Positions 8,573 to 47,872 of a stretch of DNA of 64,000 nt are shown here, piece after piece. The notes beneath the pieces were generated by a model. That model saw nothing but the letters and a program-made list of their open reading frames with translations, was not told the origin of the DNA and did not search any database. Location: assembly GCA_951406725.2 (NCBI GenBank), contig OX597817.1, forward strand, positions 176,452,001 through 176,516,000. The letters run 5' to 3'. This DNA is from Octopus vulgaris. Its lineage: Eukaryota. Positions within the stretch are counted from its first letter, which is position 1; each line of letters starts with the position of its first letter. The translations under genes were made by a program, and so were the position numbers.

Positions 8573-8609
8573 ATTTATAATATTCACTGTGGAGAGACTT
8601 TTTAAAGAT

Positions 8610-8644
<35 letters not shown>

Positions 8645-8720
8645 ATTCATTGTGGAGAAATTTTTGAACATTGTGTATATATATATATATAAAATTGACT
8701 GTGGAGAGAATCTTTGAACA

Positions 8721-8796
<76 letters not shown>

Positions 8797-8937
8797 CACT
8801 GTGGAGAGACTTTCTGAACACTGTGTATTTATATATATATATACATATATATGTAATTCACTGTTGAGAGTCTTTTTGAAGACTGTGTGAATATATATAT
8901 ATATAAAATTCACTGTGGAGATCCTTATTGAACACTG

Positions 8938-8969
<32 letters not shown>

Positions 8970-8978
8970 AAATTGACT

Positions 8979-9033
<55 letters not shown>

Positions 9034-9062
9034 ATATTCAATGTGGAGTGACTTTTGAACAC

Positions 9063-9093
<31 letters not shown>

Positions 9094-9117
9094 CACTGTG
9101 GAGAGAATTTTTGAACA

Positions 9118-9153
<36 letters not shown>

Positions 9154-9177
9154 CACTGCGGAGAGACTTATTGAACA

Positions 9178-9251
<74 letters not shown>

Positions 9252-9328
9252 AATTGACTGTGGAGAGACTTCTTGAACATTGTGTGTATATATATATATA
9301 ATTCACGTTGGAGAGACTTTTTTAAACA

Positions 9329-9405
<77 letters not shown>

Positions 9406-9543
9406 TCAATAAATGGTGGGGTTGTGTTGACCGCACGTGGAGAAATGATAAGTAAGGAAAATTTTCTTTTAAAAATGCAGAATGCTCAAATGAAAGAAAA
9501 TTTTAATAAAATGAGAAAATGATAAAATATATAAATGTATATT

Positions 9544-9584
9544 TATTCAACCGGTTTTCGTCATTGTATGACTTGTCAAGAATA
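9544..9584 (-). ncRNA. Minimal hammerhead, U3-A8 core variant (second copy on + at 10861-10901)
   Basis: tattc TTGACAA gtca tacaa tgac GAAA accgg TT gaata, with a palindromic AACCGGTT. Confidence 0.65.
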
Positions 9585-10219
9585 TTTATGTTTTAAGAAG
9601 TTTTTTTTTTAAATTAGAAAGGGGGAAAAAAAGAAAATTGCATTGTTTTTTGTAAAAGAATAATGATAAAAATGTACAAAAATTAAAAAATAAGTTCTCC
9701 GATACATTGTGAGTTCGTTGTGTATCTTGCGTTTTATGGTTGTTTACGAAAAAATTACCTTGAGGTGTTAAGATCCAAAGGGATTAAGAGCATGTGTTGT
9801 GTTGTGTTGTTAAATTCAGCATGTTTGCAGGACAGGAAGTAGTAGTAATTGTGGTCCTGCTTCTTCAGTTCCTGTGTTGTGAGTAAGGGGAGACAACTCT
9901 TTTGAGTTCTTCAATAAAACCCAAATTATAAAACTATCATTTTAGCTTCATTTGCATTATCTTTTTTATATAATTGCTTGTTAACTTAACTTTCAGATTT
10001 TAACACTTTATTTACATTATTTTCTAATAATATAAATCTGCATAGACAATTGCATTTCAAATTGTCATATCATTTATAATAAAAATGATAGTAATAACAA
10101 CAATAGTAAAAATGATATTTAAAGAATATAAGTTTTAGCTTGAAGTGATGAATGCATGGTATCTTTATATATTTGTGTTAGTCCATCCATGAAAAGTGAG
10201 GTAGAGAAAGGAAGTTTGA

Positions 10220-10675
10220 TCAACGAGGAGTTTGCATATTAAGTTGTGTTTGGAATTTTTCAATAAAGAGATTCTCCTTGTTAATTCTCTCCTGTGTGGT
10301 GATCCCGTCTTTACATTGGTAGAAGGGGAATATATAGAATTTGGGGTTTAAGTCTTTAGCACATGAGTCTAAGTGGTCACTCAGTGGAATTTGTCGGTAT
10401 TCCGGGAGATTTATTTGTTCTTTATGCACCGTTACTCGTTTACGTAACGGGAGACTCGTTTGTCCAACATAATTATGTTGGCAACCAGCGCATGTGAGAA
10501 CGTAGATAAGGTTCTCGGAGGAACAGGAGAAGTTAGACTTGATTTTAAACTTCGTACCTTGTTTGAAGGTAAATTCAGAGCCTTCAAGTAGAAAGGGGCA
10601 GGTACCACAGTTTGAGCGTGCACATTTTTTTACTGTTGGGGGTGGATGTGGTGTGTGAAGTTTGGCATTTGTCAA
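10220..10675 (-). CDS. Neptune-type Zn-finger linker and GIY-YIG endonuclease (fragment)
   Basis: KCARSNCGTC, NLIYVLTCAGCQHNYVGQT, RVTVH, E..FI..F...LN. Confidence 0.88.
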   Translation of the reverse strand: MTNAKLHTPHPPPTVKKCARSNCGTCPFLLEGSEFTFKQGTKFKIKSNFSCSSENLIYVLTCAGCQHNYVGQTSLPLRKRVTVHKEQINLPEYRQIPLSDHLDSCAKDLNPKFYIFPFYQCKDGITTQERINKENLFIEKFQTQLNMQTPR

Positions 10676-11195
10676 GAGTTACCTCAAGGTAATTTTTTCG
10701 TAAACAACCATAAAACGCAAGATACACAACGAACTCACAATGTATCGGAGAACTTATTTTTTAATTTTTGTACATTTTTATCATTATTCTTTTGCAAAAA
10801 CAATGCAATTTTCTTTTTTTCCCCTTTCTAATTTTTAAAAAAAACTTCTTAAAACATAAATATTCTTGACAAGTCATACAATGACGAAAACCGGTTGAAT
10901 AAATATACATTTATATATTTTATCATTTTCTCATTTTATTAAAATTTTCTTTCATTTGAGCATTCTGCATTTTTTAAAAAAATTTTTCCTTACTATATAT
11001 ATATATATATACATAAAATTCACTGTGGAGATCCTTATTGAACACTGTATATATATATGTATATATATAATTCACTGTGGATTGACTTTTTGAACACTGT
11101 GTGTATATATATATAAAATTGACTGTGGAGAGACTTTTTGAACACAGTGTATATCTATATATATACAATTCTCTGTGGAGAGTCTTTTTGAACAC

Positions 11196-11229
<34 letters not shown>

Positions 11230-11236
<7 letters not shown>

Positions 11237-12123
11237 TAATTAAGGGCTAAAGAGTGTTATTCTAAAGCCAAATACACTGTTTTATCCACTTATAATCCGC
11301 TTGTTACAGGAAAATTGAAACTGAAAACGGGCAACTAACCTTTAGAAAATTTAAATTTCGTTATCTCTATATTGAATCAATTTCGGACTTAATCTTATAA
11401 AAAAGATATATTCCTTCTTCAGTAGAACTTTCGATGGGATATAAATAAAATACTCACGTATGATCATGGAAAAAGCGCAAGCTAAAAACATAACTACACT
11501 TGAGTACATCACTTATATCTAAAAATAAAAATTCTTTGGTCAGCCTCAGAAAACAACGTCCAGACCTTTCGCCGCTACAAATTGTAATGGTTACCAGTCC
11601 TCCTGTAGCAAGCATCGAGTTTACTACTAAGCAATATAGGATGAAGTCCCTTACTCTACAGCAAAGGAATTCATTAGGAAGCGTGGGCAGTATATTTAAA
11701 AAAACCGTTACGGTTGCAATATACATCATATAATTAAGGGCTAAAGAGGGTTATTCTAAAGCCAAATACACTGTTTTATCCACTTATAATCCGCTTGTTA
11801 CAGGAAAATTGAAACTGAAAACGGGCAACTAACCTTTAGAAAATTTAAATTTCGTTATCTCTATATTGAATCAATTTCGGACTTAATCTTATAAAAAAAG
11901 ATATATTCCTTCTTCAGTAGAACTTTCGATGGGATATAAATAAAATACTCACGTATGATCATGGAAAAAGCACAAGCTAAAAACATAACTACACTTGAGT
12001 ACATCACTTATATCTAAAAATAAAAATTCTTTGGTCAGCCTCAGAAAACAACGTCCAGACCTTTCGCCGCTACAAATTGTAATGGTTACCAGTCCTCCTG
12101 TAGCAAGCATCGAGTTTACTACT
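11230..12123 (-). mobile_element. Non-coding ~494-bp tandem element (1.8 copies) with a hammerhead, retrozyme-like
   Basis: 11232.. is repeated at 11726... Each monomer has an HHR, and the element is flanked by (TA)n. Confidence 0.8.
11365..11426 (-). ncRNA. Type I hammerhead ribozyme motif (second copy 11859-11921)
   Basis: tcta CTGAAGA agga...tcc GAAA ttg att caa TA taga (AUA triplet). Confidence 0.7.
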
Positions 12124-12489
12124 ATATATATATATATATATATAATATTCACTGTGGAGAGACTTTTTGAACACTGTGTATATATATATATATATATATA
12201 TAAAATTCACTGTGGAGAAATTTTTGAATATTGTGTATATATATATATATATAATATTCGCTGTGGAGATAATTTTTGAACACTGTGTATATATATATAG
12301 AATTCACTGTGGAGAGACTTATTGAACACTGTGTATATATATATATTTATATATATATATAATTCACCGTGGAGAGACTTCTTGAACATTGTGTGTGTGT
12401 ATATATATATAATTGACTGTGGAGAGACTTTTTGAACACTGTGTATATCTATATATATAAATTTCTCTGTGGAACGACTTATTGAACAT

Positions 12490-12540
<51 letters not shown>

Positions 12541-12573
12541 AAATTCACTGTAGAGAGACATTTTGAACACTGA

Positions 12574-12616
<43 letters not shown>

Positions 12617-13519
12617 AAAAAGGAGATGTGGAACACGAGTTGTGATATATAAAAAGAGGAAATGAAGAAAATGCTGACAAAATAATTTAAGTAAGGGAGA
12701 GTGTATTTAATTAGGTGAAAGTTCTTTTTTTAAAGAAAAAAAAAGAGAAAAATTGGGTTAGAATACAATGTTCATTTTTTGTGAATGATTTCAGTGTATA
12801 AGAAAAAAAGGAAGAGTCTTTTACAGTGTTCTGTTTCAGAATAAGATATTTAGTAAAAGCGTGTAATATACAGTTTTTTTGTGGAAAATTTTAATGTCAG
12901 ATTTCAGTGTAGAATAAAATAAGTAAGAGTTTACCGGTTGCGCATCTGTTATGCTTATCAAAAGATATTTTGAGTGAGATAGAGTTCCTTTCTGATTGAT
13001 TTTTTCTCTTATCTGACTTTATGTTGGGTTTGCTGTCTCTTATATGTGAAAAAAAAGGCTCCGGAGTTGTTTGAGATTTGCTTGGTTTCGCGCCTAAAAT
13101 TTCTTGTGGACAATGGTCAATACAATTTTGATTGGTCATTATAAAGGGGTCACGTGTATGTTTGAATGGAAGTTGGTGTTGGGGTAAGAAAATAGGCTCC
13201 AGAGATGTTAAAATTTGGCTGGTATCGCGCCTAAAATTTCTTATTGGTCATAATAAAGAGGTCACGTGAATGTGGTCATAATAGAGAGGTCACGTGAATG
13301 TTTAGAATGAATTTTGGTGTAGGTGGTGTATGGAGTTTTCGAAAATAGCGTTGTTGAAAATTCTTATTGTTCAGGCTGGTCAGTAGACGTCATGTGGATA
13401 TTTTGAATAGCTTTTTAGCGCGTAGTTAAGGAGTGTATTTTCCGCTTGACTGAATTTGAGCTGGAAAAGTAAGTTCGTTTAGGACAGGAAGGGCTATATG
13501 TATGTATGTGTGTGCTCGC

Positions 13520-13569
<50 letters not shown>

Positions 13570-13853
13570 ATATGTATGTTGGGGCGCGCGCGCGTGTATA
13601 TATGTGTGCGTGTGTTGGTACAATTTTCAATATTTATAGTTCTGCTGGCCTTGTGCCTGTATCAGGAAGCAACGTGTTTGTGTGAAGTCAATATTTACAG
13701 TCATTTCCAAAAAATAGTGTTGGATGTTTTGCACCCGTATCAAATTATGTGTATGTGTGGAACCATATGTTTGCGTGTGTCATGGTGTTAATATCTGGGT
13801 AAAAGTGTGTGTAGGGTGTGTGTAGGTGTAAGTGTGTTTGTTGTGGGTTCAAG

Positions 13854-14375
13854 TTAGGGGGATGTGTTTAGAAGTGGTCTGTATTTATTAATAAGGTGGG
13901 ATTCCATGGTTATTCGCTGGGTATGAGTGGCATTGTCTTTAAATTTGTAGAGGGGAAAGATTCTAAAATTGGGATGAAGTTGTGAGGCACAGGTATCAAT
14001 ATGTGCACTAAGTGCTATTTTTCTGTATTCCTGTATTTTTATTTGGGATCTATGGACAGTCATGCGTTGGCGGAGGCTATTTTTAGTTTGGCCTATGTAG
14101 TGTTCATTAAAGTCCGAGCAAGTTAAGACATATACTAGGTTTTCTGATGCGCATGTGAAGTTGTGTTTTACTGTGAAACGTTGTCCTTGTTTAAAAAGGA
14201 ATTCCGGACCTTCTATTAGGTTGATGCATGTACCACAGTTGGGTCTATTGCATTTGTTTACTCTGGGTTTAGTTGTTGTGGTTGGCAGTACTTTGGCATT
14301 TGTTAGGATGGTTTTCAATGATTTGTGTTGCCTTTTGCTCTTTATGATTTCGTGTGTTAGGAGGATTTGGTTCAT
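13854..14375 (-). pseudogene. PLE GIY-YIG endonuclease domain (frameshifted from RT)
   Basis: KCNRPNCGTC, NLVYVLTC...HYIGQTKNSLRQRMTVH. Confidence 0.9.
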
Positions 14376-16174
14376 TCTATGGTCCTTTTTTAATACAGGA
14401 ATGTTCTGGAGGATGGTGTCAAAAGCTTCATTGTTGAGGGGGTTGTGTGTAGAGATGTATGGTAGAGTATGGGGTTTCGATGTAACAGCTTTTAGGGCGT
14501 CTAAGTTCCTGTGTGCTGAGTTTTAGGGCGCGTTGGATCCCATTGTCAATTAGTGACGTGGGGTAATCTCTGCTTGTTAATGTGTCCTTAGATTCTTGTA
14601 GACGTAAGAGACGGGTGTTTTTATTGGAAACTATAATGCAAATTCTCTTGGCTAAGTTTTAGGGAATGTTAATTTTAATGTGTCTAGAGTGGCATGAATT
14701 GGAAGGGAGGTATTGCTTGGAGTCTGTGGGCTTGTAGTATATGTCTGTTTCTATTTATTTGTTGTGAATTTTAATGAGGATGTCGAGGAAGGGAATTTGT
14801 TGAGGGCTGTATTCCATTGTGAAAATAATGTTTGTGTTGAGCCCATTTATAAGGGTGTGAAATTCTTTAAGTTTCTCGATGGTTTCGGGCCAAAGGATGA
14901 AGCAGTCATCAAGATATCTCTTCCAGTTCTTCTCTATGTGTGTGTGGAGAGTGGTGCCAAATTGGTTAAGAACGTTATTATAGAGGGTGATTTCCAGGTA
15001 TCCCATGACTAGGTTGGCATAAATGGGAGCTGTTTCCTTTCCCATTGCCGTCCCTGATTTCTGTCTGTAGAATTTGTCGTTGAAGGTGAAGAAATTATTC
15101 TCTAAGATGAATTTGAGTCCTTCTAAAATAAATTCCTTTTTGATGCGGTGTGGGAGTTCCTTGGAGTAATTATCCAGCCAGAATTGGATAGCTTCTATTC
15201 CTAGGTTGTGAGGGATGTTGGAGTAAAGATTAATTACATCGAATGTTACTAGCAGGGTTTGTTCAGCAAGAAGTGTATTGGGGAGGTGGTTGAGCATATC
15301 TAGATCGTCCCTTATGTAGCTTTTAATGTGTTTGAGGAAGGGATTAAGAAGGGTATCAATGAAGTTGCTAAGGCGGCGGGTTTCGCAAGCGGGACCTGCT
15401 ATTATAGGTCTCAATTTGAGGTCATTTGGTGAGGGGACATTGATTACAGAGTTTGTGGCTTCCTTGCATGCCTTACTTATTAATTCGCTTTTATGGATTT
15501 TGGGAATACCGTAGAAGAGGCTGGTTTTACTAGTGAAATTTGTGATGAAGTTGAATTCTTTGTTAGTGAGTTCTTCTTTGTTGGGGTTGATCAAGGTTTT
15601 TAAGTTTCTCATAATTTTCTGTTGATTGTAGTGTTCAGCCTTTTCGTAATATGTTCCATTTTCCAAGGTGGAGAGTGCTAAGTTGATATAGTATTCTGTC
15701 TCCATTAAGACTACTGCACTTCCTTTGTCGGCCTCTTTAATGGTGATAGATCTTTCATTTTTTAATTTGTTTAATTCTTCCCACTCTTTCTTGTTGAGGT
15801 TTGGTTTGGGTTTTGGTTTGTGTAAGTGTTGGTAGGGAAGTTTGTAATGTGCTCACAGAATTCGTCTAGGATTTTATTTCTACCTTTTGGTGGGGTGTAG
15901 TTGCTTTTATTTCTAGCTAGTGACTCATCCTCATTGTGCTGGTCGAATAGTTCCTCACTAAGTCGTAATTTTCTACAAAATTCTGTAATGTCTTCCTTCA
16001 TTTCGTAGTAGTTTGGACGTGGGGGGGGGGTGAATTTAAGACCTTTGGAGAGTAAGTTCAGAAGGTTGGGTTGGGTTCTGTATTGGTTAAATTGATGACT
16101 TTAATTAGTTTCTGTTTCTCTTCCCTGTCCTGTGTTATTTTGTTTGCCTGTATCTGTGTGCTGTGTCTAAAAAA
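14376..16174 (-). pseudogene. PLE reverse transcriptase (several frameshifts; main ORF 14755-15705)
   Basis: FYGIPKIHK, LRPIIAG, FDVINLYSNIPH, GTAMGKETAPIYANL, WKRYLDDCF. Confidence 0.92.
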
Positions 16175-18488
16175 TGGTTGGGGTAGAGGGGTTGTCTGTT
16201 GGTGTTAAGAGGTCCTGTGTGTTTGTTATATTCCTTGTTGTGAAATATGGTTCGGGTTCGTGGTTGTGGATAGAATGGGGTGTTCCTGTATTGCGGGTGT
16301 TGGTGTGTGTTTCTTTGTGTCATGTTGGATTGTGGTGATATGAGTGGCCTACGTGGGTGCTTGTATCGAGTGGTATGGGCTTGTTGTGTATTGTGAGAGT
16401 TGAGAAAGTGAAAATTACCTTGTTGTCTCCTCGTGGTGTGGACGTTGTTGTGTCTATCCTGGTAGTGGTATCCTCTTTTATTTGTTAATAAGGTATTCGA
16501 GTAGTTGTTGATTTGTTGTGTATAGTGTCTCCTTGAAGGGGGAAATTCGTTAATGTAATTCTGGTGGTGAGGGTTTCCAGGGTTCTTGTTCCTCCTTATG
16601 GACGTGGGTTAAGAAGGTACATCTTCAATATGCTGTTTCCTTCTTTTCTTCGAGGTTGGAGGGTTGGCGGAGTAGTTGTGTGGTTGGGTTCCTGGTTTTC
16701 CCATTTTTATGAACGGGTTATTGGAAGAGTAATCCGTTTTGAAAGTCGATTCATAGTTTAGGAACCAGGTGGCACTTTTTTCCCAGCGTTGTGGGGATTT
16801 TAGTTCCTCTTTGTTGCAGTCATCTTTCCATAACTTGGAGATCTTCTCTATGTGGAGGCTTTCGGCCTTGTTATTTATTACGAGGAGGATCTCTTCATCG
16901 ATTGTTTTGACTCTTTCCTCATTTGTTTGGGCCCTTAATTTGAGAAGTTCAATCTCTGTTTTCAGTCTCTCTAATGCCATTCTTTCCCTAAGTCGTCTTT
17001 GAGGTTCAGGTTCATTGGGAATAGCTTTTAATTGTATTTTGCGGGGAAGAGTTAGAGGGGTAGAGTTCATCCATTTTTCGTATATCTCGGCCTTGTTATT
17101 TCTAATCATTTTCCAGAAGGAAAACTTTCTGTCTCTGAGGGTTTATTCCATTCTGGGATTATATGATTTTTCAGTTTGTATGAATCAATTTGACATGGTT
17201 CTTCTTTGCTTTTGGCTGGGTTGGTGGTGGTGAAAAAGGTGTGGATCGTATCACACAGAGTTTGTAGCTTATCGCCGATTTCGGAGGGTTTGTGTCCAGT
17301 AATGGTTTCCTCATTAGTGGAGTCCAATTTGTTGACTAGTACAGAGAGGTCATCATCATCATTGTTCGACCGTGGTCGAGACAATGGAATTTACTATGTT
17401 ACGCCAGACTTCACGGTCCATCATAGCATTACGGAGGTCCTGTTGCTGATGCCTGTATCCCTGGAGATTACATCAGGGTAGGAGAGTGTGCGCCCTCTGG
17501 TATTGCGAGTAGATGGCTTCCAGAGAAGAGTAGAAATTACTTCTTTTTCAGCTCTACAACAATGTCCTGCAAACTGGACTCTCTTACCTTTCACAAGAGA
17601 TGACACAGGTGGTAATTTCCCATATATTTGCATTTTGGTTGGATGGCGCTTCCACGAGAGATTTTGAGCTCTCATAAGGAGGCGAGTGTAGGTTCCATCC
17701 AACCGCCTCTCAAGCTTCTTTGATAACGTCCAGGTTTCTGAGCCATATAGTAGAATTGGTTCGACTGTGGCTTTGAATATTTCAAGTTTGAAGTCTCTAC
17801 TTAGATTTGATGACCAGATCTTATGCATGTCATTACAGGCTGACCAGGCCATACCCTTTCTAGTTAGAAAGTCTTTTCCAGATGATGATATGTATGACCC
17901 AAGATATTTATAATCAGAAACCATATTTAAAGGCGCACTGTTGAGAGTGTGGATGATGCAATCACTGTTGGACAGGCACTTGTTTATGTATTCAGTTTTG
18001 GCCTCATTGAGGTAAAGACCTACACAATTTGAGGCTTGTTCAAGAGATTGTAAAAGAGACTGGGCATTGGAGAGAGAATCACTGATAAGAGCGATGTCGT
18101 CAGCAAAGTCAGTGTCTGTCAAGTACTCAGCTGGGTGTCTGGAACTTCTTCTTGGTTTTATTTCAAAGCCCTTGCCAGAGATGGTATCAACTGACATACG
18201 TAGCACATAATCAACAACAATGATGAAAAGAAATGGGGCGAGTGTGTCTCCCTGCAGTATTCCGGCTTTGATTGAGAAAGATGATGTTTCTCCATCAGGG
18301 GTTAAGATGGTTGAAGACGTATCTGTGTAGAGGACCTTGATGGCAGAAATAATTTTGTCTGGTATCCCATAGAGCTTAAGGATTTCAAATAGAGAGGTAG
18401 GTGTTGATGTTTTTGAGTTCCTGTAGGATTTCTTCGTTTAAGTTGATTAGGGTAGTTTCAGTTTTTGTAGGCATTTTCTGTATCTCAT
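16135..18488 (-). pseudogene. Upstream ORF1-like helical/coiled-coil protein of the PLE, interrupted by an RTE insertion
   Basis: Pieces 18385-18570, 17106-17384, 16609-17109 and 16135-16323. Homologous to ORF 34883-35818 (WMNSTP..LPRK.Q.K.IPNEP, EIELL.LR..TNEE). Confidence 0.7.
17351..18390 (-). mobile_element. 5'-truncated RTE-clade LINE nested in the PLE, with an 8-bp TSD
   Basis: ORF 17421-18206 (DFADDIAL, LLYGSETWT) and a (GAT)n tail. TSD AGAGAGGT at 17343-17350 and 18391-18398. Confidence 0.92.
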
Positions 18489-19236
18489 GCGGGGATATGA
18501 TATTTAAAAAAGGAGATGTCGAACACGAGTTGTGATATATAAAAAGAGGAAATGAAGAAAATGCTGACAAAATAATTTAAGTAAGGGAGAGTGTATTTAA
18601 TTAGGTGAAAGTTCTTTTTTTAAAGAAAAAAAGAGAAAAATTGGGTTAGAATACAATGTTCATTTTTGTGAATGATTTCAGTGTATAAGAAAAAAAGGAA
18701 GAGTCTTTTACAGTGTTCTGTTTCAGAATAAGATATTTAGTAAAAGCGTGTAATATACAGTTTTTTGAAAATACAGGAATACAGAAAAATAGCACTTAGT
18801 GCACATATTGATACCTGTGCCGCACAACTTCATCCCAATTTTAGAATCTTTTCCTCTACAAATTTAAAGACAATGCCACTCATACCCAGCGAATAACCAT
18901 GGAATCCCACCTTATTAATAAATACAGACCACTTCTAAACACATCCCCCTAACACGAACCCACAACAAACACACTTACACCTACACACACCCTACACACA
19001 CTTTTACCCAGATATTAACACCATGACACACGCAAACATATGGTTCCACACATACACATAATTTGATACGGGTGCAAAATATCCAACACTATTTTTTGGA
19101 AATGACTGTAAATATTGACTTCACACAAACACGTTGCTTCCTGATACAGGCACAAGGCCAGCAGAACTATAAATATTGAAAATTGTACCCACACACGCAC
19201 ACATATATACACGCGCGCGCGCCCCAACATACATAT

Positions 19237-19285
<49 letters not shown>

Positions 19286-20184
19286 CACACACATACATAC
19301 ATATAGCTCTTCCTGTCCTAAACGAACTTACTTTTCCAGCTCAAATTCAGTCAAGCGGAAAATACACTCCTTACCTACGCGCTAAAAAGCTATTCAAAAT
19401 ATCCACATGACGTCTACTGACCAGCCTGAACAATAAGAATTTTCAACAACGCTATTTTCGAAAACTCCATACACCACCTACACCAAAATTCATTCTAAAC
19501 ATTCACGTGACCTCTCTATTATGACCACATTCACGTGACCTCTTTATTATGACCAATAAGAAATTTTAGGCGCGATACCAGCCAAATTTTAACATCTCTG
19601 GAGCCTATTTTCTTACCCCAACACCAACTTCCATTCAAACATACACGTGACCCCTTTATAATGACCAATCAAAATTGTATTGACCATTGTCCACAAGAAA
19701 TTTTAGGCGCGAAACCAAGCAAATCTCAAACAACTCCGGAGCCTTTTTTTTCACATATAAGAGACAGCAAACCCAACATAAAGTCAGATAAGAGAAAAAA
19801 ATCAATCAGAAAGGAACTCTATCTCACTCAAAATATCTTTTGATAAGCATAACAGATGCGCAACCGGTAAACTCTTACTTATTTTATTCTACACTGAAAT
19901 CTGACATTAAAATTTTCCACAAAAAAACTGTATATTACACGCTTTTACTAAATATCTTATTCTGAAACAGAACACTGTAAAAGACTCTTCCTTTTTTTCT
20001 TATACACTGAAATCATTCACAAAAAATGAACATTGTATTCTAACCCAATTTTTCTCTTTTTTTTTCTTTAAAAAAAGAACTTTCACCTAATTAAATACAC
20101 TCTCCCTTACTTAAATTATTTTGTCAGCATTTTCTTCATTTCCTCTTTATATATATCACAACTCGTGTTCCACATCTCCTTTTT

Positions 20185-20221
<37 letters not shown>

Positions 20222-20582
20222 TGTTCAAAATGTCTCTCCGCAGTGAATTTTATATATATATATATTTACACAGTTTTCAAAAGTCTCTCCACAGTGAATT
20301 CTATATATATATATATATATATTCATAAATTCACTGTGGAGAGACTTTTTGAACACTAAGTATATATATATATATAAATATATATATAAAATTCCCTGTG
20401 GAGAGACTTTTTGAACACTTTGTATATATATATATATAAAATTCACTATGGAGAGACTATTTGGACAATGTGTGTATATATATATATATATATATAAAAT
20501 TCACTTTGGAGAAACTTTTGGAACACTGTGTATATATATATACATATATATATATATAGTTTCAAAAGTCTCTCCTCAGTGA

Positions 20583-20618
<36 letters not shown>

Positions 20619-20760
20619 TAAATTCACTGTGGAGAGACTTTTTGAACACTAAGTATATATATATATATAAATATATATATAAAATTCCCTGTGGAGAGAC
20701 TTTTTGAACACTTTGTATATATATATATATAAAATTCACTATGGAGAGACTATTTGGACA

Positions 20761-20792
<32 letters not shown>

Positions 20793-20873
20793 AATTCACT
20801 TTGGAGAAACTTTTGGAACACTGTGTATATATATATACATATATATATAGTTTTCAAAAGTCTCTCCACAGTG

Positions 20874-20915
<42 letters not shown>

Positions 20916-21312
20916 CACTGTGGAGAGACCTTTTGAACACTGTGTATATATGTATATATATAAAATTCACTGTGGAGAGACTTTTTGAACACTGTATATA
21001 TATATATATATATATATATATGCAAAATTCACTGTGGAGAGACATTTTGAATACTGTGTATATATATATATAAAATTCAGAGTGGAGACACTTTTTTAAC
21101 ACTGTGTGTGTATATATATATATATATATATAAAATTCCCTGTGGAGAGACTTTTTGAACACTGAGTATATATATATCTATAAAATTTACTATGGAGAGA
21201 TTTTTGAACAGTGTGTGTATATATGTATATAAAATTCACTGTGGAGAGACTTTTTGTACACTGTGTATATATATATATATATAAAGCTCACTGTGGAGAA
21301 ATTTTTGAACAT

Positions 21313-21359
<47 letters not shown>

Positions 21360-21383
21360 CACTGTGGAGAGAGTTTTTGAACA

Positions 21384-21435
<52 letters not shown>

Positions 21436-21529
21436 CACTGTGAAGAGAGTTTTTGAACACTGTATATATATATATATATATATATAATTCACTGTGGAGA
21501 GATTTTTTGTACACTGTATATATATTGTA

Positions 21530-24500
21530 TTGTATATATATTGTCTCTCGGGAGACAATGGAGTTGCGCATGAAGTAGTCTAGTCCGGGTTTTATATTTC
21601 ATGTCCAGATACATTTCCTGCAGTGGCTGTGTAGTCCTATCCTGGACAAACACTCCCTCTCGCAGGTACCGCAAATGTAGCGAAGACTGTTCCTGGCTGG
21701 TTGTAGTGCCATAGTCTCTATTTACGTCTCTTCCTTTCTTTCCATTTCTCCTCTCTCTCTCTGTCACTCCTTTGTATTCCCTTTTTTACGGTACGTCGCC
21801 ATTCTGCATGGTTGTCGGCAACTGCCTCCCAACCGCTAATATTGATGTTGCAGGCCTTCATGTCCCTTTTGCAAACATCCTTGTAACGTAAGATCGGTCG
21901 ACCCACAGACCTAGTACCCCTAGCAAGCTCTCCGAAGAGTATGTCCTTGGGGATTCTGCCATCTTTCATACGGCTAACATGCCCAAGCCATCTCAAACTT
22001 CTTTGTGTGAGGAGTGCAAACATGCTTGGTATTCCTGCTTGCCTGAGGACATCTTTGTTGGGGATATGATTCTGCCATTTGATGCGGAGGATTTTTCGGA
22101 GGCAGCGCAGGTGAAATATGTTTAGGTGACGCTCTTCGCGTGTGTATAGCGTCCAGGTCTCACTTCCATACGGTAGAGTGCTCAGTACACATGCCTGGTA
22201 GATCTTCATTTTCGTGGTCTTGGTCAGCTTATTGTTGTCCGAAGCCCGTTTGTAGAGTTGGGCCATCGCAGCAGCTGCCTTGCCAATGCGTATATTGAGC
22301 TCAGCGTCAAGGGATAGGTTGTAGGTGACGGTAGAGCCCAGAGAGGTAAACTTCTCCACCTCTTGTAATCTGTGGTCTCCAATATATATGTTTGGGATGT
22401 CCGATGTAGCCTGGCCCATGATGTTGGTCTTCTTAAGGCTGATAGCTAAGCCAAAGTCGTTACATGCTTGCTCAAAACAGTTAATGAGCCTTTGGAGGGC
22501 TTCTTCTGTGTGTGTTACCAGAGCGGCATCATCAGCAAATAACATCTCCTTGATCAGGACGTTTCTGATTTTGGTCTTGGCACGCAGGCGCGAGAGATTG
22601 AACAGTTTCCCGTCACTTCTACTGTGCAGAAACACTCCATCATCTGATGTCTGAAAGGCATGTGAAAGTAAGAGCGTGAAGATGCCAAACAATGTAGGAG
22701 CGAGGACACAACCTTGCTTTACCCCGTTTTTTATTTGGAAGGCGGCTGATGTTGAACCGTTGTGCTATATGGTGCCTTGCATGTCATCATGGAAAGACTT
22801 GATGATCCTCAGCAGCTCTGGTGGACATCCGATTTGTTGGAGCAGGATGAAGGGGCCTGTTATGCTTACCGATTCAAAAGCCTTTGTTAGATCAATGAAG
22901 GCCATATATAATGGCATTCTCTGCTCTCTGGACTTCTCCTGAAGTTGGCGTATGGAGAATATCATATCGATAGTTGACCTGCTTCTTCTAAAGCCATACT
23001 GCGATTCCGGATAGATTCGAGAAGCAAGTAGTTGTAGCCTGGCCAGGATAACGCGGGCAAAGGTCTTTCCGACAGTGCTTAGAAGGGATATACCACGGTA
23101 ATTGTTACAATCACCACGGTCACCTTTGTTTTTGTAAAGCGTAATGATGTTAGCATCCCGCATATCCTGAGGGACTGTACCCTCTTCCCAGCACTGACAC
23201 AGAAGCTCATGAAGGTGCCGAAGCAGGATGGTGTTTTTGCCGGCTTTGATGATCTCTGAGGGGATGCCGTTTTTTCCCGGAGCCTTATTTCTTGCTAGGG
23301 AGTCAACAGCCTTGGTGAACTCTGCTATAGATGGCGGACTGTCAAGTTCGCACATGACTGGCAAGATCTTGACGCTCTCGACTGCAGCCTCAGCCACTGT
23401 GGTCTCCCGTGAGTAGAGATCCTGCTAGTGCTCCACCCATCTATCCATTTGCTTGCCTTGATCCCTGATGAGATCTCCAGTAGTTGATTTCAGAGGGGCT
23501 GACTTGGTTGCGGATGGACCGAGGGCCTTCTTCAAACCGGCATACATCCCACGGGTGTCGCCCCTGTCAGCAGCTGACTGGATACTCTGACAGATTTCCT
23601 GCCAATACCTATTTGCACAGCGTCTGGCTGTCAGTTGAGTTTTATTTCGTGCCCTTCTGAGTTCTTCGAGTGACTTTGTAGAAGAGTCAATCTTGTATTG
23701 CACCAGAGCTGCACGCTTTGCTTCGATAACTGACTCCAGCTCTGAGAGCCCAGCATTGAACCAATCTGGGTTTTGCCTTTCTCTCATGCCGAAAGTATCC
23801 AATGATGTCGTATACAAGGCTTCCCTGATATAAGTCCCACCTACTTTCAGCAGAGGAGGTTGGGCAGCTACTGAGGGCAACCTTGATAGGAGCAGCAAAA
23901 CATTTTCGCAGTGTAGGGTCCGAGGTTCAGGCGGTGTTGATGCGTGGTCGGCCCACTTTCTTGGAGCGATGGACTTTTTTAGGCAGAATCCTCGCCCTGC
24001 TTCTAATTAGTGAGTGGTCTGTGTCACAATCTACGCTGTGGTAACTGCGGGTCAATAGAGTAGAATTTAGAAAGGATCTCCGTGTAATGATGAGATCCAG
24101 CTGATGCCAGTGGTGAGATCTTGGATGTCTCCAGGATGCCTTGTGGGATGGCTTGTTGGTAACCAATGTGTTTGTGATGCACAGGTTGTGGTATGTGCAG
24201 AATTCGAGTAGTCTCTGACCATTGTCATTCATGTTGCCAATACCAAAGTGTCCAACACAAATGGGCCACGAATCATGGTCAGATCCCACGCGAGCGTTAA
24301 AATCCCCTAGAAGGTAGATATTTTCAGTCGTTGGTATATTTTCTATGACACAGTTGAGATCTTTGTAGAACTGGTCCTTGGTCTCCTCTGAGCTGTAGAG
24401 AGTGGGAGCATAGATGCTGAGTAGATGTACTGAGCCAGAAGAAGTCGAGAGAGGCAGTGAGAGGATACGCTCAGTGCCTCCCGATGGTGGTTCTATTGAG

Positions 24501-25407
24501 GAGAGTAGTGAGTTTCTCACTGCAAAGCCAACGCCATGTTGACGAGGTTCTTCTGGATCTCTTCCCTGCCAAAAGAAGGTGAAATCCTGCTCTTTGAGTT
24601 TGCCGTTTGAGGGAAGTCTTGTCTCCTGCAGCCCAGCAATATCTATGTTGAGCCTCTTTAGTTCACGGTCAATGATGGCCATTTTCCTTGTGTCTTCAAT
24701 CCTGAGAAGATCATCAGATATTCCAGGACACATGGTCCTGACATTCCAGCTTGCCAACCGCAGAACTGGTGTTTTCTTGACTTTTAGTTGCTTGCCTGCT
24801 GCAGAGGTTGCAGGCCGCTTTTCGGGTCATGCTCTTAGCTCCAAGCACCCAATGGAGCAAACGGCTTGTGGCGGGTCAGCACCTTATTAACTGGGGGCTG
24901 CCCAGCTTGAGGTGGGCAGTAGCTAACCAATAGGACACGGAGGTCCCTCCCACCGTCAGAGGTAACCCGTAGCGCCCATATTTTACGCCAAACTGAATGG
25001 ACTTATCACTCGTGACTGTTACCTCCCGTGTTGTTTCTGCAGCTTTTCACATCAGCACTGAAGTGTCCTCTCCAGTTTTGCGCAAGCTTGGGCTATAGAT
25101 AAGAAAGTCCTGGGTAGCCCAATCGTCAGGTTTCCTCTCTCGACCTTGCTGATGTAGTCCAGTGGAGTGAAGTGCATTACGTATGGCACCAGCTTGGTTG
25201 CAGGAGCTTCCGGAAGAGTGTCGAGTCGAACACAAGACCGCCTTCGGGGCTTCATTCCGGATTTCTTTGAAGGTTGTCTCCTTTCCGTAACCCTGGATAG
25301 GGGCCCATACCGGGTGCTGTCAGCCAGAGCCAGCTGAGCCCGGAACTCGTGTCAGGCAGGGTCGTCACTCCCTGAAGTAGTGAAGAAGTTCGCTACCCAC
25401 TACCTTT
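21530..25407 (-). mobile_element. Apparently full-length RTE/BovB-type LINE (APE and RT), frameshifted
   Basis: ORFs 23927-24757 (SWNVRTM, LQETR, GDFNARVG, TDH), 23425-23898, 22765-23397 (NYRGISLLS, FIDLTKAF) and 21718-22692 (LFADDAAL). ~0.6-kb GC-rich 5' UTR and CAATA-type tail. Confidence 0.93.
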
Positions 25408-25826: not shown

Positions 25827-28405
25827 CCTTAAAATCCTTAAAAATGTTTTAGCCCGAAGGCCGCGGCCATGCTGGGGCACCACCGCTGAATGAGCTACAC
25901 TAGTTTGTGAATCCACCTCTGATACGTGGCACTTGATCAACAAGGGAGTTCGATGCTGCTGCCCGCATCCGTGTCTCCTGTCGTGAGGTAGGTTCATCTG
26001 GGACTCCCAACAAGAAGAGATCCAGTTTAGTTTTAAAGAAACCCACATCCACACCATGTAAGTCTCTCAGGCATTTAGGGAGGATGTTAAAGAGCTGTGG
26101 TCCTCTGAAACCCAAGCTGTTGCAGTATCTGGACCTGTATTTTGATGGTGATGTTGGAATCCTTGGCACCACGCAGCGGCGCCCCGTTCTGCGGTTGGAG
26201 TAACTTTGAATGCCAAAGTTTGGGACAAGACCCTCCAGGATTTTCCAGATGTATATCACTGCATATCTCTCCGCCTCCGCTCCAGGGAGAAGAGGTTTAA
26301 TACCTTCAGTCTTTCCCAGTAGCTGACATTTTGCATTGAGACGATTTTCTTTGTGTAGCTTCTCTGAGTTGCTTCGAGTTCTGCTGTTTGTTTTATATTG
26401 TGTGGTGACCAAAGTTGGGAGCAGTAGTCCAAGCGGCTGAGGACAAATGTTTTCCATAGGACCATCAGTGTCTCCTTCTCTCTTGTTCTGAAAGTTCGGA
26501 GAATCCATCCAGCTAGCCGTCTGCATTTTATCACCAGATTAGCAATATGCATTTGGAAAGATGCATCATTGCTCATGTCAATGCCCAGGTCACGCACTGA
26601 TTTTGACTCAGGGATTGCAATTCTTCCTGGGCCAGTGTATCCAGTCTTCACGTCATTTACCTTTGTGTGCCAGTAGCGCAGGGCCTGGAACTTACCTGCA
26701 TTAAACTGCATGTTGTTGTCCTCAGCCCACCTGTATATTGTGTCCAGCTCATGTTGCAGATGCGCAATATTTTCAGGGTTTTGTATTGCGTGGGAGACTT
26801 TTGTGTCATCTGCATAGCTAGCAAGGGTGGTCATCGTAGCAACTGAAGGCATGTCTGAAAGGGCCACTATGAACATCAGTGGCCCCAAGACAGTGCCCTG
26901 TGGGACACCGCTTGTTATTTGCGTTTCCCTGGAGGTGGCTCCATTGCTCACAACTGCCTGTTTTCTGTCTTTTAGGAAGTTGTGCAGCCACTCTCCAAGT
27001 TTCCCGCCTATGCCGAGACCACGCAGTTTGTGACAGATCATACCATGGTCGACTTTATCAAAGGCTTTTGCAAAGTCAAGATATATTACATCCACATTTG
27101 AGCCATTTAGTAGCTGTTTCAACACCCAGTCATAGTGTTGCAGGAGCTGTGTTAGGCAGCCTCTACCTGGTCGAAATCCATGCTGGGTGTCAGACAGTAA
27201 GTCATTTTCTTCAAGGAACATGATTAGTTTCTTACGGACTATTCGTTCCATGACTTTGCTGATGTGTGAGGTCAGAGAGATAGGCCTATAATTTTTAGCA
27301 TCTGCTCTGCTACCTCCCTTATGGATAGGGCATATTACCCCCTCTTTCAGTTTGACTGGGAGCTTACCACTTGCAAGAAAGCTCTGAAAAAGAAGCTGTA
27401 GCGGTTTTGCAAGGGCTCGTTTGCATGATTTGAGAAGGATCGCTGGGAATCCATCAGGTCCAGCAGCTGAGTTTGTGTCAATCTCATCAATGGCTAGTGT
27501 GATATCATCTTCTTCGATGTTGATGTACTCAATTTTTGTCTCTTTGGCCGCTGGTAAAGTGGCAAAGAATTCTTCTGGGTTGTTTACTTGCCTGTGTCCT
27601 AGAGGTGTAGTGAACACACTTTGGAACTGTTCGTTCAGTATTTCACTTATCCTCGTGGGATTTCCTGTGAGAGAGCCATCTTTTTGGAAGAGAGGTCCTA
27701 TTCTCTGGTGCACTGTGGCTGTCTCTTTGGCAAACTTAAAGAAAGCTTTAGGGTTTGATTTTATATTTTCTATTACCCAAGCTTCTTTATCTGCTCTCTC
27801 CTTTTCATGGGACTGATGTAGACTTTTCTCAGTTTCCATTAGCATTCTTTCGAGCCGAGACTTCTCACCACTTTTGGTGTGCTTGCTCAGGCGGTTTGCA
27901 ATCCTTGTCCGTCGTCTCATAAGAATCCTCCTTTCTCTAGGGATCCTGTTTTTATTCTTGTGTGTGCTGGCCCTGCACATTGGGACATATTTGTCACATA
28001 TGGCTTGTATTATGGACATGAAGTGTTTGTGTTTCATGTTTATGTCCGGTGTGGAGAGACATTCAGGCCAATCCTGTTTGAGGATCTCTTTCTCAATCGA
28101 CTTCCAGTTGGCTTTATGAAAGTTTAAGTTGGAGAGATGGTGGGTGCTTCGTATAGGCTGTGTGTCTGCGGGGGCTTTTGTTCCATACATAGACAGCTCT
28201 ATTATGTTGTGATCCGAGATCATTGTCGGCATCACATTAACATTATGGATAATATCCATATTGTTTGTAAAGCAGAGATCCAGTATATTATCTGCCCTTG
28301 TTGGTTGCAGAACTATTTGCTCCATGAAAGAGGTATTTGTGAGATGGAGCAGGGACTCCACCTGTGCCTGCTGATGGTGTGTCATCCCTGGGAGCATCTG
28401 CCCCC

Positions 28406-28408
<3 letters not shown>
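25823..28408 (-). mobile_element. 5'-truncated CR1-group LINE (family B)
   Basis: ORF 26256-28397 (SGVPQGTVLGP, YADDTK) plus the frameshifted C-terminus 25900-26526. TTAAGGA-type tail. Confidence 0.93.
26256..28397 (-). CDS. LINE ORF2 (APE C-terminus and RT), 1-bp frameshift near the end
   Basis: 713-aa ORF with RT motifs. The paralog at 54390 has the extra C that restores RRRERY. Confidence 0.85.
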   Translation of the reverse strand: MLPGMTHHQQAQVESLLHLTNTSFMEQIVLQPTRADNILDLCFTNNMDIIHNVNVMPTMISDHNIIELSMYGTKAPADTQPIRSTHHLSNLNFHKANWKSIEKEILKQDWPECLSTPDINMKHKHFMSIIQAICDKYVPMCRASTHKNKNRIPRERRILMRRRTRIANRLSKHTKSGEKSRLERMLMETEKSLHQSHEKERADKEAWVIENIKSNPKAFFKFAKETATVHQRIGPLFQKDGSLTGNPTRISEILNEQFQSVFTTPLGHRQVNNPEEFFATLPAAKETKIEYINIEEDDITLAIDEIDTNSAAGPDGFPAILLKSCKRALAKPLQLLFQSFLASGKLPVKLKEGVICPIHKGGSRADAKNYRPISLTSHISKVMERIVRKKLIMFLEENDLLSDTQHGFRPGRGCLTQLLQHYDWVLKQLLNGSNVDVIYLDFAKAFDKVDHGMICHKLRGLGIGGKLGEWLHNFLKDRKQAVVSNGATSRETQITSGVPQGTVLGPLMFIVALSDMPSVATMTTLASYADDTKVSHAIQNPENIAHLQHELDTIYRWAEDNNMQFNAGKFQALRYWHTKVNDVKTGYTGPGRIAIPESKSVRDLGIDMSNDASFQMHIANLVIKCRRLAGWILRTFRTREKETLMVLWKTFVLSRLDYCSQLWSPHNIKQTAELEATQRSYTKKIVSMQNVSYWERLKVLNLFSLERRRRDMQ

Positions 28409-28452
<44 letters not shown>

Positions 28453-28625
28453 CACTGCGGAGAGATTTTTGAACACTGAGTATATATATATATATATATA
28501 TATCAACAATTAAGGAACGGCCATAATAGGCCATTCACCCACTAGAAATAACAGCCAAAGCTTCTACCGCAAATAAAGATTAATTCCGTAAACAGGAGAA
28601 AATTAAAAAAAACATTTACCCTGTA

Positions 28626-28732
28626 ATTTCTTGTACGGTATACCGTTTCATCTGCTGTTTAATGGTAAACTAACCTGATTAAATTAAATCAAGCCAATCT
28701 TCCATAAGCCCTCAGATTCTTCAGCAAGAAAT
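28626..28732 (-). ncRNA. Canonical type I hammerhead ribozyme (also ~29117-29225 and ~29610-29716)
   Basis: atttcttg CTGAAGA atctg...cagat GAAAC gg tata cc GTA caagaaat (8-bp stem I, 5-bp stem II base, 4-bp stem III). Confidence 0.9.
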
Positions 28733-30561
28733 AGCTCAAATCGGAACAGATATTTACACGAGGCATCTCCAACCCTGCCAAGGCAATATCTGACCTAAAA
28801 TTTTCAAATCGTCGCACTCGCGCCAAATTTATCGGCAGCAAATAAATATAAGCCGTCGATTCCATTACGGAACTAACCAAAAAATTCATAATTAATCAAT
28901 ATAGGGTGGCAAGAAAAATTTTGTAGAATTTTTTTGCCACCAGCGGCCTAGTGGGAAAAAATTAAATAGTCATAGACCATTTTTAAGTTCAACATCAACA
29001 ATTAAGGAACGGCCATAATAGGCCATTCACCTACTAGAAATAACAGCCAAAGCTTCTACCGCAAATAAAGATTAATTCCGTAAACAGGAGAAAATTAAAA
29101 AAACATTTACCCTGTAATTTCCTGTACGGTATATACCGTTTCATCTGCTGTTTAATGGTAAACTAACCTGATTAAATTAAATCAAGCCAATCTTCCATAA
29201 GCCCTCAGATTCTTCAGCAAGAAATAGCTCAAGTCGGAACAGATATTTACACGAGGCATCTCCAACCCTGCCAAGGCAATATCTGACCTAAAATTTTCAA
29301 ATCGTCGCACTCGCGCCAAATTTATCGGCAGCAAATAAATATAAGCCGTCGATTCCATTACGGAACTAACCAAAAAATTCATAATTAATCAATATAGGGT
29401 GGCAAGAAAAATTTTGTAGAATTTTTTTGCCACCAGCGGCCTAGTGGGAAAAAATTAAATAGTCATAGACCATTTTTAAGTTCAACATCAACAATTAAGG
29501 AACGGCCATAATAGGCCATTCACCCACTAGAAATAACAGCCAAAGCTTCTACCGCAAATAAAGATTAATTCCGTAAACAGGAGAAAATTAAAAAAACATT
29601 TACCCTGTAATTTCTTGTACGGTATACCGTTTCATCTGCTGTTTAATGGTAAACTAACCTGATTAAATTAAATCAAGCCAATCTTCCATAAGCCCTCAGA
29701 TTCTTCAGCAAGAAATAGCTCAAGTCGGAACAGATATTTACACGAGGCATCTCCAACCCTGCCAAGGCAATATCTGACCTAAAATTTTCAAATCGTCGCA
29801 CTCGCGCCAAATTTATCGGCAGCAAATAAATATAAGCCGTCGATTCCATTACGGAACTAACCAAAAAATTCATAATTAATCAATATAGGGTGGCAAGAAA
29901 AATTTTGTAGAATTTTTTTGCCACCAGCGGCCTAGTGGGAAAAAATTAAATAGTCATAGACCATTTTTAAGTTCAACATCAACAATTAAGGAACGGCCAT
30001 AATAGGCCATTCACCCACTAGAAATAACAGCCAAAGCTTCTACCGCAAATAAAGATTAATTCCGTAAACAGGAGAAAATTAAAGAATCTGAGGGCTTATG
30101 GAAGATTGGCTTGATTTAATTTAATCAGGTTAGTTTACCATTAAACAGCAGATGAAACGGTATACCGTACAAGAAATTACAGGGTAAATGTTTTTTTAAT
30201 TTTCTCCTGTTTACGGAATTAATCTTTATTTGCGGTAGAAGCTTTGGCTGTTATTTCTAGTGGGTGAATGGCCTATTATGGCCGTTCCTTAATTGTTGAT
30301 GTTGAACTTAAAAATGGTCTATGACTATTTAATTTTTTCCCACTAGGCCGCTGGTGGCAAAAAAATTCTACAAAATTTTTCTTGCCACCCTATATTGATT
30401 AATTATGAATTTTTTGGTTAGTTCCGTAATGGAATCGACGGCTTATATTTATTTGCTGCCGATAAATTTGGCGCGAGTGCGACGATTTGAAAATTTTAGG
30501 TCAGATATTGCCTTGGCAGGGTTGGAGATGCCTCGTGTAAATATCTGTTCCGACTTGAGCT

Positions 30562-33900: not shown

Positions 33901-33925
33901 GTGCATTGATGGAAGGGCTGACACC
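30917..33925 (-). mobile_element. CR1-group LINE (family C), nearly complete ORF2
   Basis: ORF 31322-33958: APE (LTETHL, GDFNLP, SDHD) and RT (FADDSK), with a TGG>TAG stop near the end. (TATCAAAG)n tail. Confidence 0.93.
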
Positions 33926-34034
33926 ATATATATATATGTATATATATATAAAATTCACTGTAGAGAGACTTTTTGAATACTGTGTAAATATATATATATA
34001 TAAAATTCACTGTGGAGAGACATTTTAAACACTG

Positions 34035-34883: not shown

Positions 34884-34972
34884 CACTGTGGAGATACTTT
34901 TTGAAGACTGTATATATATATAGATAAGAAAGTTGGTTTGTGAAAGCACGTGGGTGAATATATAGAAAATAG

Positions 34973-35818: not shown

Positions 35819-36005
35819 GTGTTTAATATATAGATAAGAAAGTTGGTTTGTGAAAGCACGTGGGTGAATATATAGAAAATAGTAAAGAGTGAAAAAACGA
35901 CAGAAGGCTTAAATGTTAAAAAATATATATATTTGCGTCAATATGTCTGAAGAATATTAGAAAATTTAAAAAAAAAATTTTTTTCTCTTATAATGACATA
36001 ATTAA

Positions 36006-39434: not shown

Positions 39435-39438
<4 letters not shown>

Positions 39439-44075: not shown

Positions 44076-44154
44076 CACTGTGGAGAGTCTGTTTGAAGAC
44101 TGTGTGTATATATATATATAAAATTCACTGTGGAGAGACATTGTGAACACTGTG

Positions 44155-47455: not shown

Positions 47456-47509
<54 letters not shown>

Positions 47510-47620: not shown

Positions 47621-47652
<32 letters not shown>

Positions 47653-47828: not shown

Positions 47829-47872
<44 letters not shown>

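Follow-up and report, generated by a model that had tools for sequence, protein, structure and literature searches.

Endonuclease-positive (EN+) Penelope-like elements (PLEs) form the sister group of telomerase reverse transcriptase (RT). In the accessible parts of PMC8557442, canonical EN+ PLEs are described as carrying a single open reading frame (ORF). According to the legend to Fig. 1 of that paper, a frameshift with a pseudoknot can set ORF1 apart, and the figure may draw an ORF1 for an EN+ clade; the preprint legend says the same and describes Coprina as organised like Athena. The accessible text of PMC13159263 attributes two ORFs to Athena and to one fungal Coprina. The supplement of PMC8557442, in its available portion, lacks the string 'KGLKFTPT' and mentions ORF1 solely for two Chara Chlamys elements. 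Programmed frameshifts in EN+ PLEs go without mention in the available portions of PMC3846280, PMC6431247, PMC5408684, PMC6515669 and 10.64898/2026.07.22.740005. Our literature search returned no description of the overlap reported here, for which prior notice is possible in the Terminon and 2007 Athena papers or in Repbase. Here, we analyze a PLE in a 64,000-nucleotide stretch of the Octopus vulgaris genome (contig OX597817.1, positions 176,452,001 to 176,516,000; hereafter the window), whose ORF1 overlaps a −1-frame RT-endonuclease (RT-EN) ORF at a slippery sequence. The overlap is real and family-wide, and it most likely represents programmed −1 frameshifting.

How does this element compare with described PLEs? 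Like the Neptune-clade EN+ PLEs in the accessible parts of PMC8557442, it combines an RT with a GIY-YIG endonuclease at the C-terminus and a CX2-5CxxC linker, carries direct and inverted pseudo-long terminal repeats (pseudo-LTRs) and is inserted among TA repeats. Its GLKF and ADKGG-type motifs are, by eye, nearer to Neptune than to the Nematis rows in the available supplement of that paper. Unlike Neptune PLEs, which are described as single-ORF elements, the clade has a separate ORF1 of 350–470 amino acids (aa) and an RT in the −1 frame. A coiled ORF1 upstream of the RT likewise occurs in the endonuclease-negative (EN−) Athena/Terminon and Coprina PLEs. Unlike Athena and Coprina, which are EN− and telomeric, the clade is dispersed and carries GIY-YIG, and folding with pseudoknot-free models showed no such structure.

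The ORF1/RT junction in the window

An earlier note on this DNA proposed that a T TTT TTA heptamer joins ORF1 to the RT by a programmed −1 frameshift. Re-reading the minus strand confirms both the heptamer and its X XXY YYZ phase, and the junction has the following features:

16168–16174, minus strand: slippery heptamer T TTT TTA, read from the sequence in X XXY YYZ phase as the last base of a His codon, Phe and Leu
16135–16137, minus strand: ORF1 0-frame stop TAA, 10 residues past the Phe-Leu (FL) dipeptide
16105–16107, minus strand: second 0-frame stop, 20 codons past FL, at the stop position of relatives P0001, P0002, P0005, P0006 and P0012
16058–16204, minus strand: −1-frame stretch that spans the overlap and the linker, carries the K-V-I-N-L motif of the RT N-terminus and is closed by a frame break near 16063

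The 0 frame crosses the heptamer as AAC CAT TTT TTA GAC (N-H-F-L-D). The −1 frame opens past a TAA at 16207–16205, reads F-F-RHSTQIQANKITQDREEKQKLIKVINLT and ends at a TGA at 16060–16058. From the heptamer, this frame reaches the KVIN of the RT N-terminus at 16102–16091, which bears out the claim that it continues toward the RT region. The upstream frame had been said to stop at 16135, and in this copy it does. However, because seven close relatives have Trp at this position and five of the seven stop at the second 0-frame stop, the family stop in this subfamily is probably the one at 16107–16105.

T6A occurs once on the sense strand of 13850–17150 and 47 times across the two strands of the window. 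Arithmetic from these rates and from the 11 XXXYYYZ heptamers on that sense strand puts the chance of an in-phase hit within the ~22-codon overlap at ~1% for T6A and ~7% for any heptamer. Nevertheless, the window copy on its own proves little because it is decayed. As the earlier note had cautioned, the copy contains other frameshifts: breaks lie near 17140, 16063, 15815 and 14495, together with several stops, and ORF1 and the RT core happen to stand in the same frame. The copy is dead. Its four additional frame breaks speak for a rival explanation: FL would be an ORF1 protein motif or a run that arose by chance, and decay of a single ORF would account for the change of frame.

Conservation and codon phase among ORF1 relatives

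The window ORF1 belongs to a stand-alone helical protein family of 350–470 aa. A phmmer search against 1.84 billion representatives gave 531 matches at E ≤ 0.001; the 150 listed include no ORF1-RT fusion, and only one of them is 500 aa or longer, a protein of 644 aa whose match is confined to residues 1–68. Word searches added 33 further near-length matches and one longer match of 325 aa. We aligned an unselected set of 90 proteins of 290–520 aa out of 168 fetched, leaving out P0030 (a host-gene chimera); their median pairwise identity is 30%. A second alignment of 53 rows was chosen partly for full length. In the latter, an invariant Phe and a Leu conserved in at least 90% of rows follow an otherwise unalignable tail. 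In the 90-row set, Phe occupies the site column in 80 proteins, and 78 are scorable, with Phe present and at least two residues after it. The site dipeptide in these 78 is FL in 69, FF in 4, FR in 3, FI in 1 and FN in 1. The heptamer proposed in the earlier note is therefore conserved at the level of its protein signature (X-F-L/F, compatible with a T TTT TTN phase) in 73 of the 78 ORF1s, and these 73 FL/FF rows comprise 40 different tetrapeptides.

Does this conservation concern amino acids or nucleotides? Lys, Glu, Gln, Met and Trp, whose codons cannot end in T and are hence incompatible with T|TTT, never precede the site Phe (0/78; background 18.7%), whereas they precede 60 of 231 other upstream Phe residues. 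This preceding-residue rule points to a constraint on nucleotide phase. Moreover, both junctions available as DNA, those of the window and of locus L001 from a genome-contig scan, use T|TTT|TTR with six T's in phase; from each element's own codon usage, the chance of this choice is 0.024 and 0.10, or 0.0024 jointly. Preceding residue and codon choice both point to nucleotides and thus argue against a mere protein motif.

The fixed phase also bears on RNA polymerase slippage on the T run, in which an added U would put the RT in frame in the RNA. An extra T would yield the same fusion, and ORF1 P0075 looks like a case in which an insertion of this kind became fixed, either in DNA or in an assembly: its F-F-F continues in frame into an RT N-terminal segment that matches P0234 at 79% over 29 aa. 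However, polymerase slippage makes no demand on codon phase, and among the relatives that phase does not vary (0/78 exceptions). Six T's are also short for this process, which we regard as extremely improbable here.

A residue with a G-initial codon follows FL in 54 of the 78 ORF1s (background 21%). This preference would also suit splicing, with TTTTTAG as a 3′ splice acceptor (TTA|G), ORF1 as intronic sequence and a spliced mRNA as the template for the RT. Introns are known in PLEs, F-R could be encoded by TTY AG, and a donor-like CAG|GTTAGT lies past codon 56 of a second ORF1 in the window, where 14 database proteins diverge. We nevertheless consider splicing very unlikely. An upstream pyrimidine tract is missing, as the pyrimidine-rich residues F/L/P are not enriched (5–11% at positions −2 to −8); G is absent in 24/78; and the first AG in L001 lies 14 nucleotides (nt) further on. 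In addition, the phase-0 donor past codon 56 would give the +1 frame, not the RT frame, and the window element has no GT at the matching place.

F-R replaces F-L in P0098, P0104 and P0035, and also in P0145 and P0160; P0098 and P0104 still carry the D-H-N-W motif seen in related F-L members. UUU CGN is a +1 frameshift motif, and the F-R members could represent a switch to such a signal. The motifs that follow FL differ by subfamily (D-H-N-W, G-G-G or H-G-Q-G-A) and may reflect local RNA elements. A fall in −1-frame stop potential after FL (from 0.093 to 0.060) was discounted, as within-tail shuffles did as well in 276 of 1000 cases.

The junction in RT-EN relatives

A search for RT relatives at 640–2000 aa gave 156 matches; the 120 listed are all 640–810 aa long, and an ORF1 profile matches none of these 120. 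The family is not one continuous ORF, and the frameshift interpretation of the earlier note survives, on the relatives, both tests that could have refuted it, namely a single continuous ORF and an unconserved heptamer; frameshifting itself we infer. The genome-contig scan yielded 18 loci (L001–L018), four of which are too short to reach the junction. L001 is the sole ORF1 carrier, and L006 and L008–L012 read as single-ORF PLEs. The 18 loci are animal-type PLEs on contigs filed in bacterial genome bins, and three protein matches are named as Candidatus Thiodiazotropha proteins; these PLE loci are probably host contamination.

In L001, the heptamer T TTT TTG occupies 1202–1208, and ORF1 ends with N-F-L-F plus 17 residues. 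The −1 frame, which encodes RT-EN without a break over 771 aa, opens two codons upstream of the heptamer and contains no AUG for ~140 codons, with its first Met near residue 140. When all ORF1 ends were compared with all RT starts (~1.09 million tests per frame), two compatible −1 overlaps of 10–11 codons emerged (P0004/P0176 and P0012/P0171, both listed on 13,692-nt contigs), besides one 6-codon +1 hit. The −1 frame is able to read [PT]-K-[IV] at 13 of 78 ORF1 stops and the +1 frame at none; the corresponding −1 rates are 35/1343 downstream and 22/3198 upstream. The in-frame passage of P0075 from F-F-F into RT sequence likewise speaks for the −1 arrangement. ORF1 and RT are physically linked in five cases, and their linkage is presumed for the remaining family.

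What is observed directly is the two-ORF layout, the −1 overlap, a site conserved in sequence and phase and, in L001, an RT ORF without an early AUG. We judge the decay of a single ORF highly improbable. Single-ORF PLEs do exist among the loci (e.g. L006 and L008), but no ORF1-RT fusion occurs among the 150 listed ORF1s or the 120 listed RTs, and the −1 overlap recurs independently in L001 and two protein pairs.

Only 48 of the 120 predicted RTs have an early start that includes the Asn of the INLS motif, and 72 begin after it. These scattered internal-Met starts are explained by the ORF1/RT overlap. They also bear on termination-reinitiation, the main rival to frameshifting, in which restart at a −1-frame AUG ~30 nt past the U-run (AUGA/UAAUG overlap) would produce a separate RT-EN. 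Restart would be helped by the U-run or by the FL peptide, and in some subfamilies reinitiation could operate together with frameshifting. Of the 78 ORF1s, 25 have their stop at FL+11, exactly 10 residues past FL, and another seven have Trp there (A|TGG possible); the last residue is compatible with A|TGA in 21 of the 25. In the window's RT subclade, five of seven database RTs start with Met at that place, 11–13 residues ahead of INLS. Conversely, L001 lacks any AUG over its first ~140 codons, the Met position differs between close relatives, the window has ATA at the AUG position, and most predicted RTs start past the INLS Asn, although these starts were picked by the gene caller and some of the contigs may be truncated. 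Nor would reinitiation account for the T|TTT|TT phase. The short −1 overlap near the ORF1 stop and the AUG in one subclade recall SART1 LINEs (long interspersed nuclear elements) and caliciviruses, which use stop-start reinitiation; unlike in those systems, the AUG is not conserved across the family here and the slippery site is. We judge reinitiation unlikely.

Several observations weigh against programmed frameshifting. Phe is missing at the site column in 10 of 90 ORF1s (some truncated or misaligned), FR, FI or FN replaces FL/FF in 5 of 78, and P0033 reads H-F-V. The ORF1 rows are related by descent, so that the counts overstate independence and significance. The junction is known as DNA for two loci only, and the last base of the site varies between TTA, TTG and TTY (the last from protein evidence). 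The L001 site ends in UUG, and by the canonical slippery-site rule Z is not G; the L001 ORF1 also holds an internal stop. Folds downstream of the L001 site are modest (z −0.97 to −1.77; weak hairpins), and no RNA fold was found downstream of the window heptamer (three folds, z +0.40 to +1.33), in agreement with the earlier remark that no stimulatory hairpin was evident; the DNA junctions are too few for covariation. If the window copy is taken alone, 11 XXXYYYZ heptamers on the sense strand of 13850–17150 also count against the site. Finally, besides the Met starts in the window's RT subclade, FF is found upstream in 1 of 48 RT heads, and some heads run for 34–59 aa without FF.

A model for ORF1/RT expression

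Programmed −1 ribosomal frameshifting is the best model for the junction and, judged from sequence, a probable one. We propose that the stand-alone helical ORF1 overlaps the −1-frame RT-EN ORF at a conserved U UUU UUN, where ribosomes would slip back by one base part of the time. The output would be abundant ORF1 and a minor ORF1-RT-EN fusion. tRNA-Phe and tRNA-Leu would slip in tandem on UUU UUA/G, and tandem tRNA slippage on such a site is known from lentiviral gag-pol. ORF1 may be a Gag/ORF1p-like ribonucleoprotein component that is needed in excess over the enzyme. The site agrees with a frameshift signal in that the heptamer is in phase at both DNA junctions (one ending in G) and the −1 ORF is open from the site without a conserved start. 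By analogy, the element most likely functions in the manner of Athena, with its ORF1/RT arrangement, or of retroviral gag-pol. As in HIV-1 gag-pol, U UUU UUA stands in the same phase, often followed by G, and the structural ORF would exceed the RT fusion. Unlike HIV-1, the element is neither an LTR element nor a virus, a protease and a zinc knuckle were not seen, and no stem-loop follows the window site.

What could stimulate slippage? Candidate stimulators are RNA elements particular to each subfamily or a ribosome waiting in a queue at the 0-frame stop. Stacked ribosomes are spaced by ~10 codons, and the stop lies 10 codons past the slippery codons in one large subclade and 20 codons past them in the window's subfamily. 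Shared descent accounts for part of the 10-residue spacing because 24 of 26 such rows (window included) sit in one 41-row group (97% SH-like approximate likelihood ratio test support in a quick IQ-TREE tree). However, the spacing is kept over long branches and across peptides of no sequence likeness, which leads us to the hypothesis that ribosome queueing times the −1 frameshift without any RNA structure. While one ribosome terminates at the ORF1 stop, the ribosome behind it would be held on U UUU UUA, and ribosome load would set the ORF1:RT ratio. We regard this timing mechanism as doubtful.

Element anatomy and classification

Read 5′ to 3′ along the minus strand, the window element consists of an inverted copy of its 3′ end, a direct pseudo-LTR, ORF1, the junction, the RT (overall about 16100–14491), the linker, GIY-YIG and the 3′ untranslated region (UTR):

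18768–20268, plus strand: inverted copy of the element's 3′ end, 97.9% identical to 12522–14039
18495–18766, minus strand: direct pseudo-LTR copy of 275 bp just upstream of the ORF1 ATG, 98% to 12606–12879
18391–18474, minus strand: ORF1 5′ piece with ATG at 18474, 62% over 32 aa to the second ORF1 N-terminus, severed by the RTE-like insertion
17351–18390, minus strand: 5′-truncated non-LTR retrotransposon with a (TGA)n tail inside ORF1 (RVT_1, E 7e-12)
16135–17350, minus strand: ORF1 body, a helical core and then an N/Q/R-rich low-complexity tail ending in HFLD...
15786–16061, minus strand: RT N-terminal segment with the L-SKGLKF-TP motif (tblastn, 52–60% to P0170, P0171 and P0176)
14491–15843, minus strand: PLE RT core and thumb with in-frame stops (RVT_1, E 1.5e-7; 56–60% to intact relatives)
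13854–14510, minus strand: C-x4-C-x2-C linker and then GIY-YIG endonuclease (GIY-YIG, E 9.1e-8)
12522–14039, minus strand: endonuclease 3′ end, 3′ UTR and pseudo-LTR, terminating in TA-rich satellite

The insertion inside ORF1, which in our reading is RTE-like by its motifs, is 1,040 bp long, has an 8-bp target duplication (18391–18398 and 17343–17350) and retains its RT piece as an open 338-aa frame. The ORF1 body has a frame break near 17140 and a stop at 16609–16611. No hammerhead occurs among 60 Rfam matches in 10000–21000, and no CTGANGA core in 12522–14039 of this decayed copy; Rfam matches in 10000–21000 are sub-threshold and mostly miRNA-like on TA repeats.

By its sequence, the window element is assigned to a two-ORF, EN+ clade of Neptune-like PLEs. 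Pfam recognizes RVT_1 and the C-terminal GIY-YIG, with 56–60% to intact RT-ENs, and the direct (275-bp) and inverted (1.5-kb) repeats match at 98%. A C-x4-C-x2-C linker occurs in the window and its relatives, and such a linker is common to Nematis and Naiad. Within the CCHH motif of the endonuclease, all 35 relatives keep both Cys that lie between GIY and YIG, and at least 90% keep the His; the window copy has lost one Cys. A FastTree analysis of the RT separates 121 rows, including the window and L001, from three single-ORF loci and P0288 by a branch with 99% SH-like support. This tree contains no reference Neptune sequences, and the likeness to Neptune is a motif comparison by eye. The single-ORF organization of EN+ PLEs is not found: ORF1 is separate and the RT lies in the −1 frame in the window, L001 and two protein pairs. 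Nor is the element of the EN− Athena/Coprina type, as GIY-YIG is present and the flanks are TA-rich satellite, not telomeric.

The ORF1 protein

The model of relative P0038 has helices over residues 71–256, with predicted local distance difference test scores mostly above 90, and a disordered tail. Scanning 53 members gave no shared Pfam family (four singleton hits), and Foldseek with the ORF1 model gave no match at E ≤ 0.001 among PDB and viral models. VIA-align found generic helical-bundle matches only (best Z 8.9, root-mean-square deviation 5.0, 147 residues aligned). The ESM Atlas gave nothing usable for P0001 and, for P0010, two unnamed clusters at 0.79 and 0.75 that serve as leads only. 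Searches by tblastn found nothing for P0038 in plasmids or for P0171 in phages. Comparison of ORF1 with the in-frame N-terminal domain of single-ORF PLEs was not significant (hhalign probability 0.2%, with a shallow template).

A second, divergent ORF1 lies at 34886–35908 on the minus strand (ATG 35806; 52% over 145 aa to the window ORF1). It is open for ~280 codons, 3′-truncated before the junction and bounded by a 57-bp direct repeat (34916–34972 and 35826–35882) and inverted flanks. Named Octopus proteins match the N-terminus of a related ORF in the window at up to 88%. The donor-like sequence after codon 56 of the second ORF1 lies near 35638 (minus strand). Fourteen database proteins share the first 56 residues of this second ORF1 and then diverge; eight are named Octopus vulgaris, one has a DGCR6 domain and one is 644 aa long. 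Gene models therefore take the transposon start as a first exon.

Other features of the window

The window abounds in TA satellite and in retrotransposons. At 10238–10690 on the minus strand lies a GIY-YIG fragment from a related PLE (53–58% identity), with a 316-bp inverted repeat (9451–9766 and 10681–10994). Satellite arrays of a ~50-bp unit, a TA run plus a CACTGTGGAGAG-type core, lie between nearly all retroelements (e.g. 8600–12500, 20200–21500 and 47500–48550); TA-seeking elements may use this satellite as a target or carry it along as a passenger. Near-perfect tandem arrays occupy 28502–30083 (491 bp × 3.2, 99%) and 42913–43573 (67 bp × 9.9, 93%). At least seven LINE-like RT elements are present, most with an apurinic/apyrimidinic endonuclease and two with unbroken frames of 894–998 aa:

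21718–24826: LINE-like RT element
26256–28451: LINE-like RT element
31322–34006: LINE-like RT element
39436–41902: LINE-like RT element
44147–47143: LINE-like RT element
48438–51995: LINE-like RT element
56316–59392: LINE-like RT element

Biological significance

ORF1 constitutes a previously unannotated protein family of hundreds of clusters without a Pfam match. The clade that carries it, with named sources in Octopus, Mytilus, Pinctada and Saccostrea, provides numerous naturally varied forms of a single slippery site, which seem to share no universal stimulator. EN+ PLEs have been described as single-ORF elements, and a widespread clade with a retrovirus-like ORF1/RT overlap changes this picture and links EN+ elements in architecture to the telomeric Athena/Coprina type.

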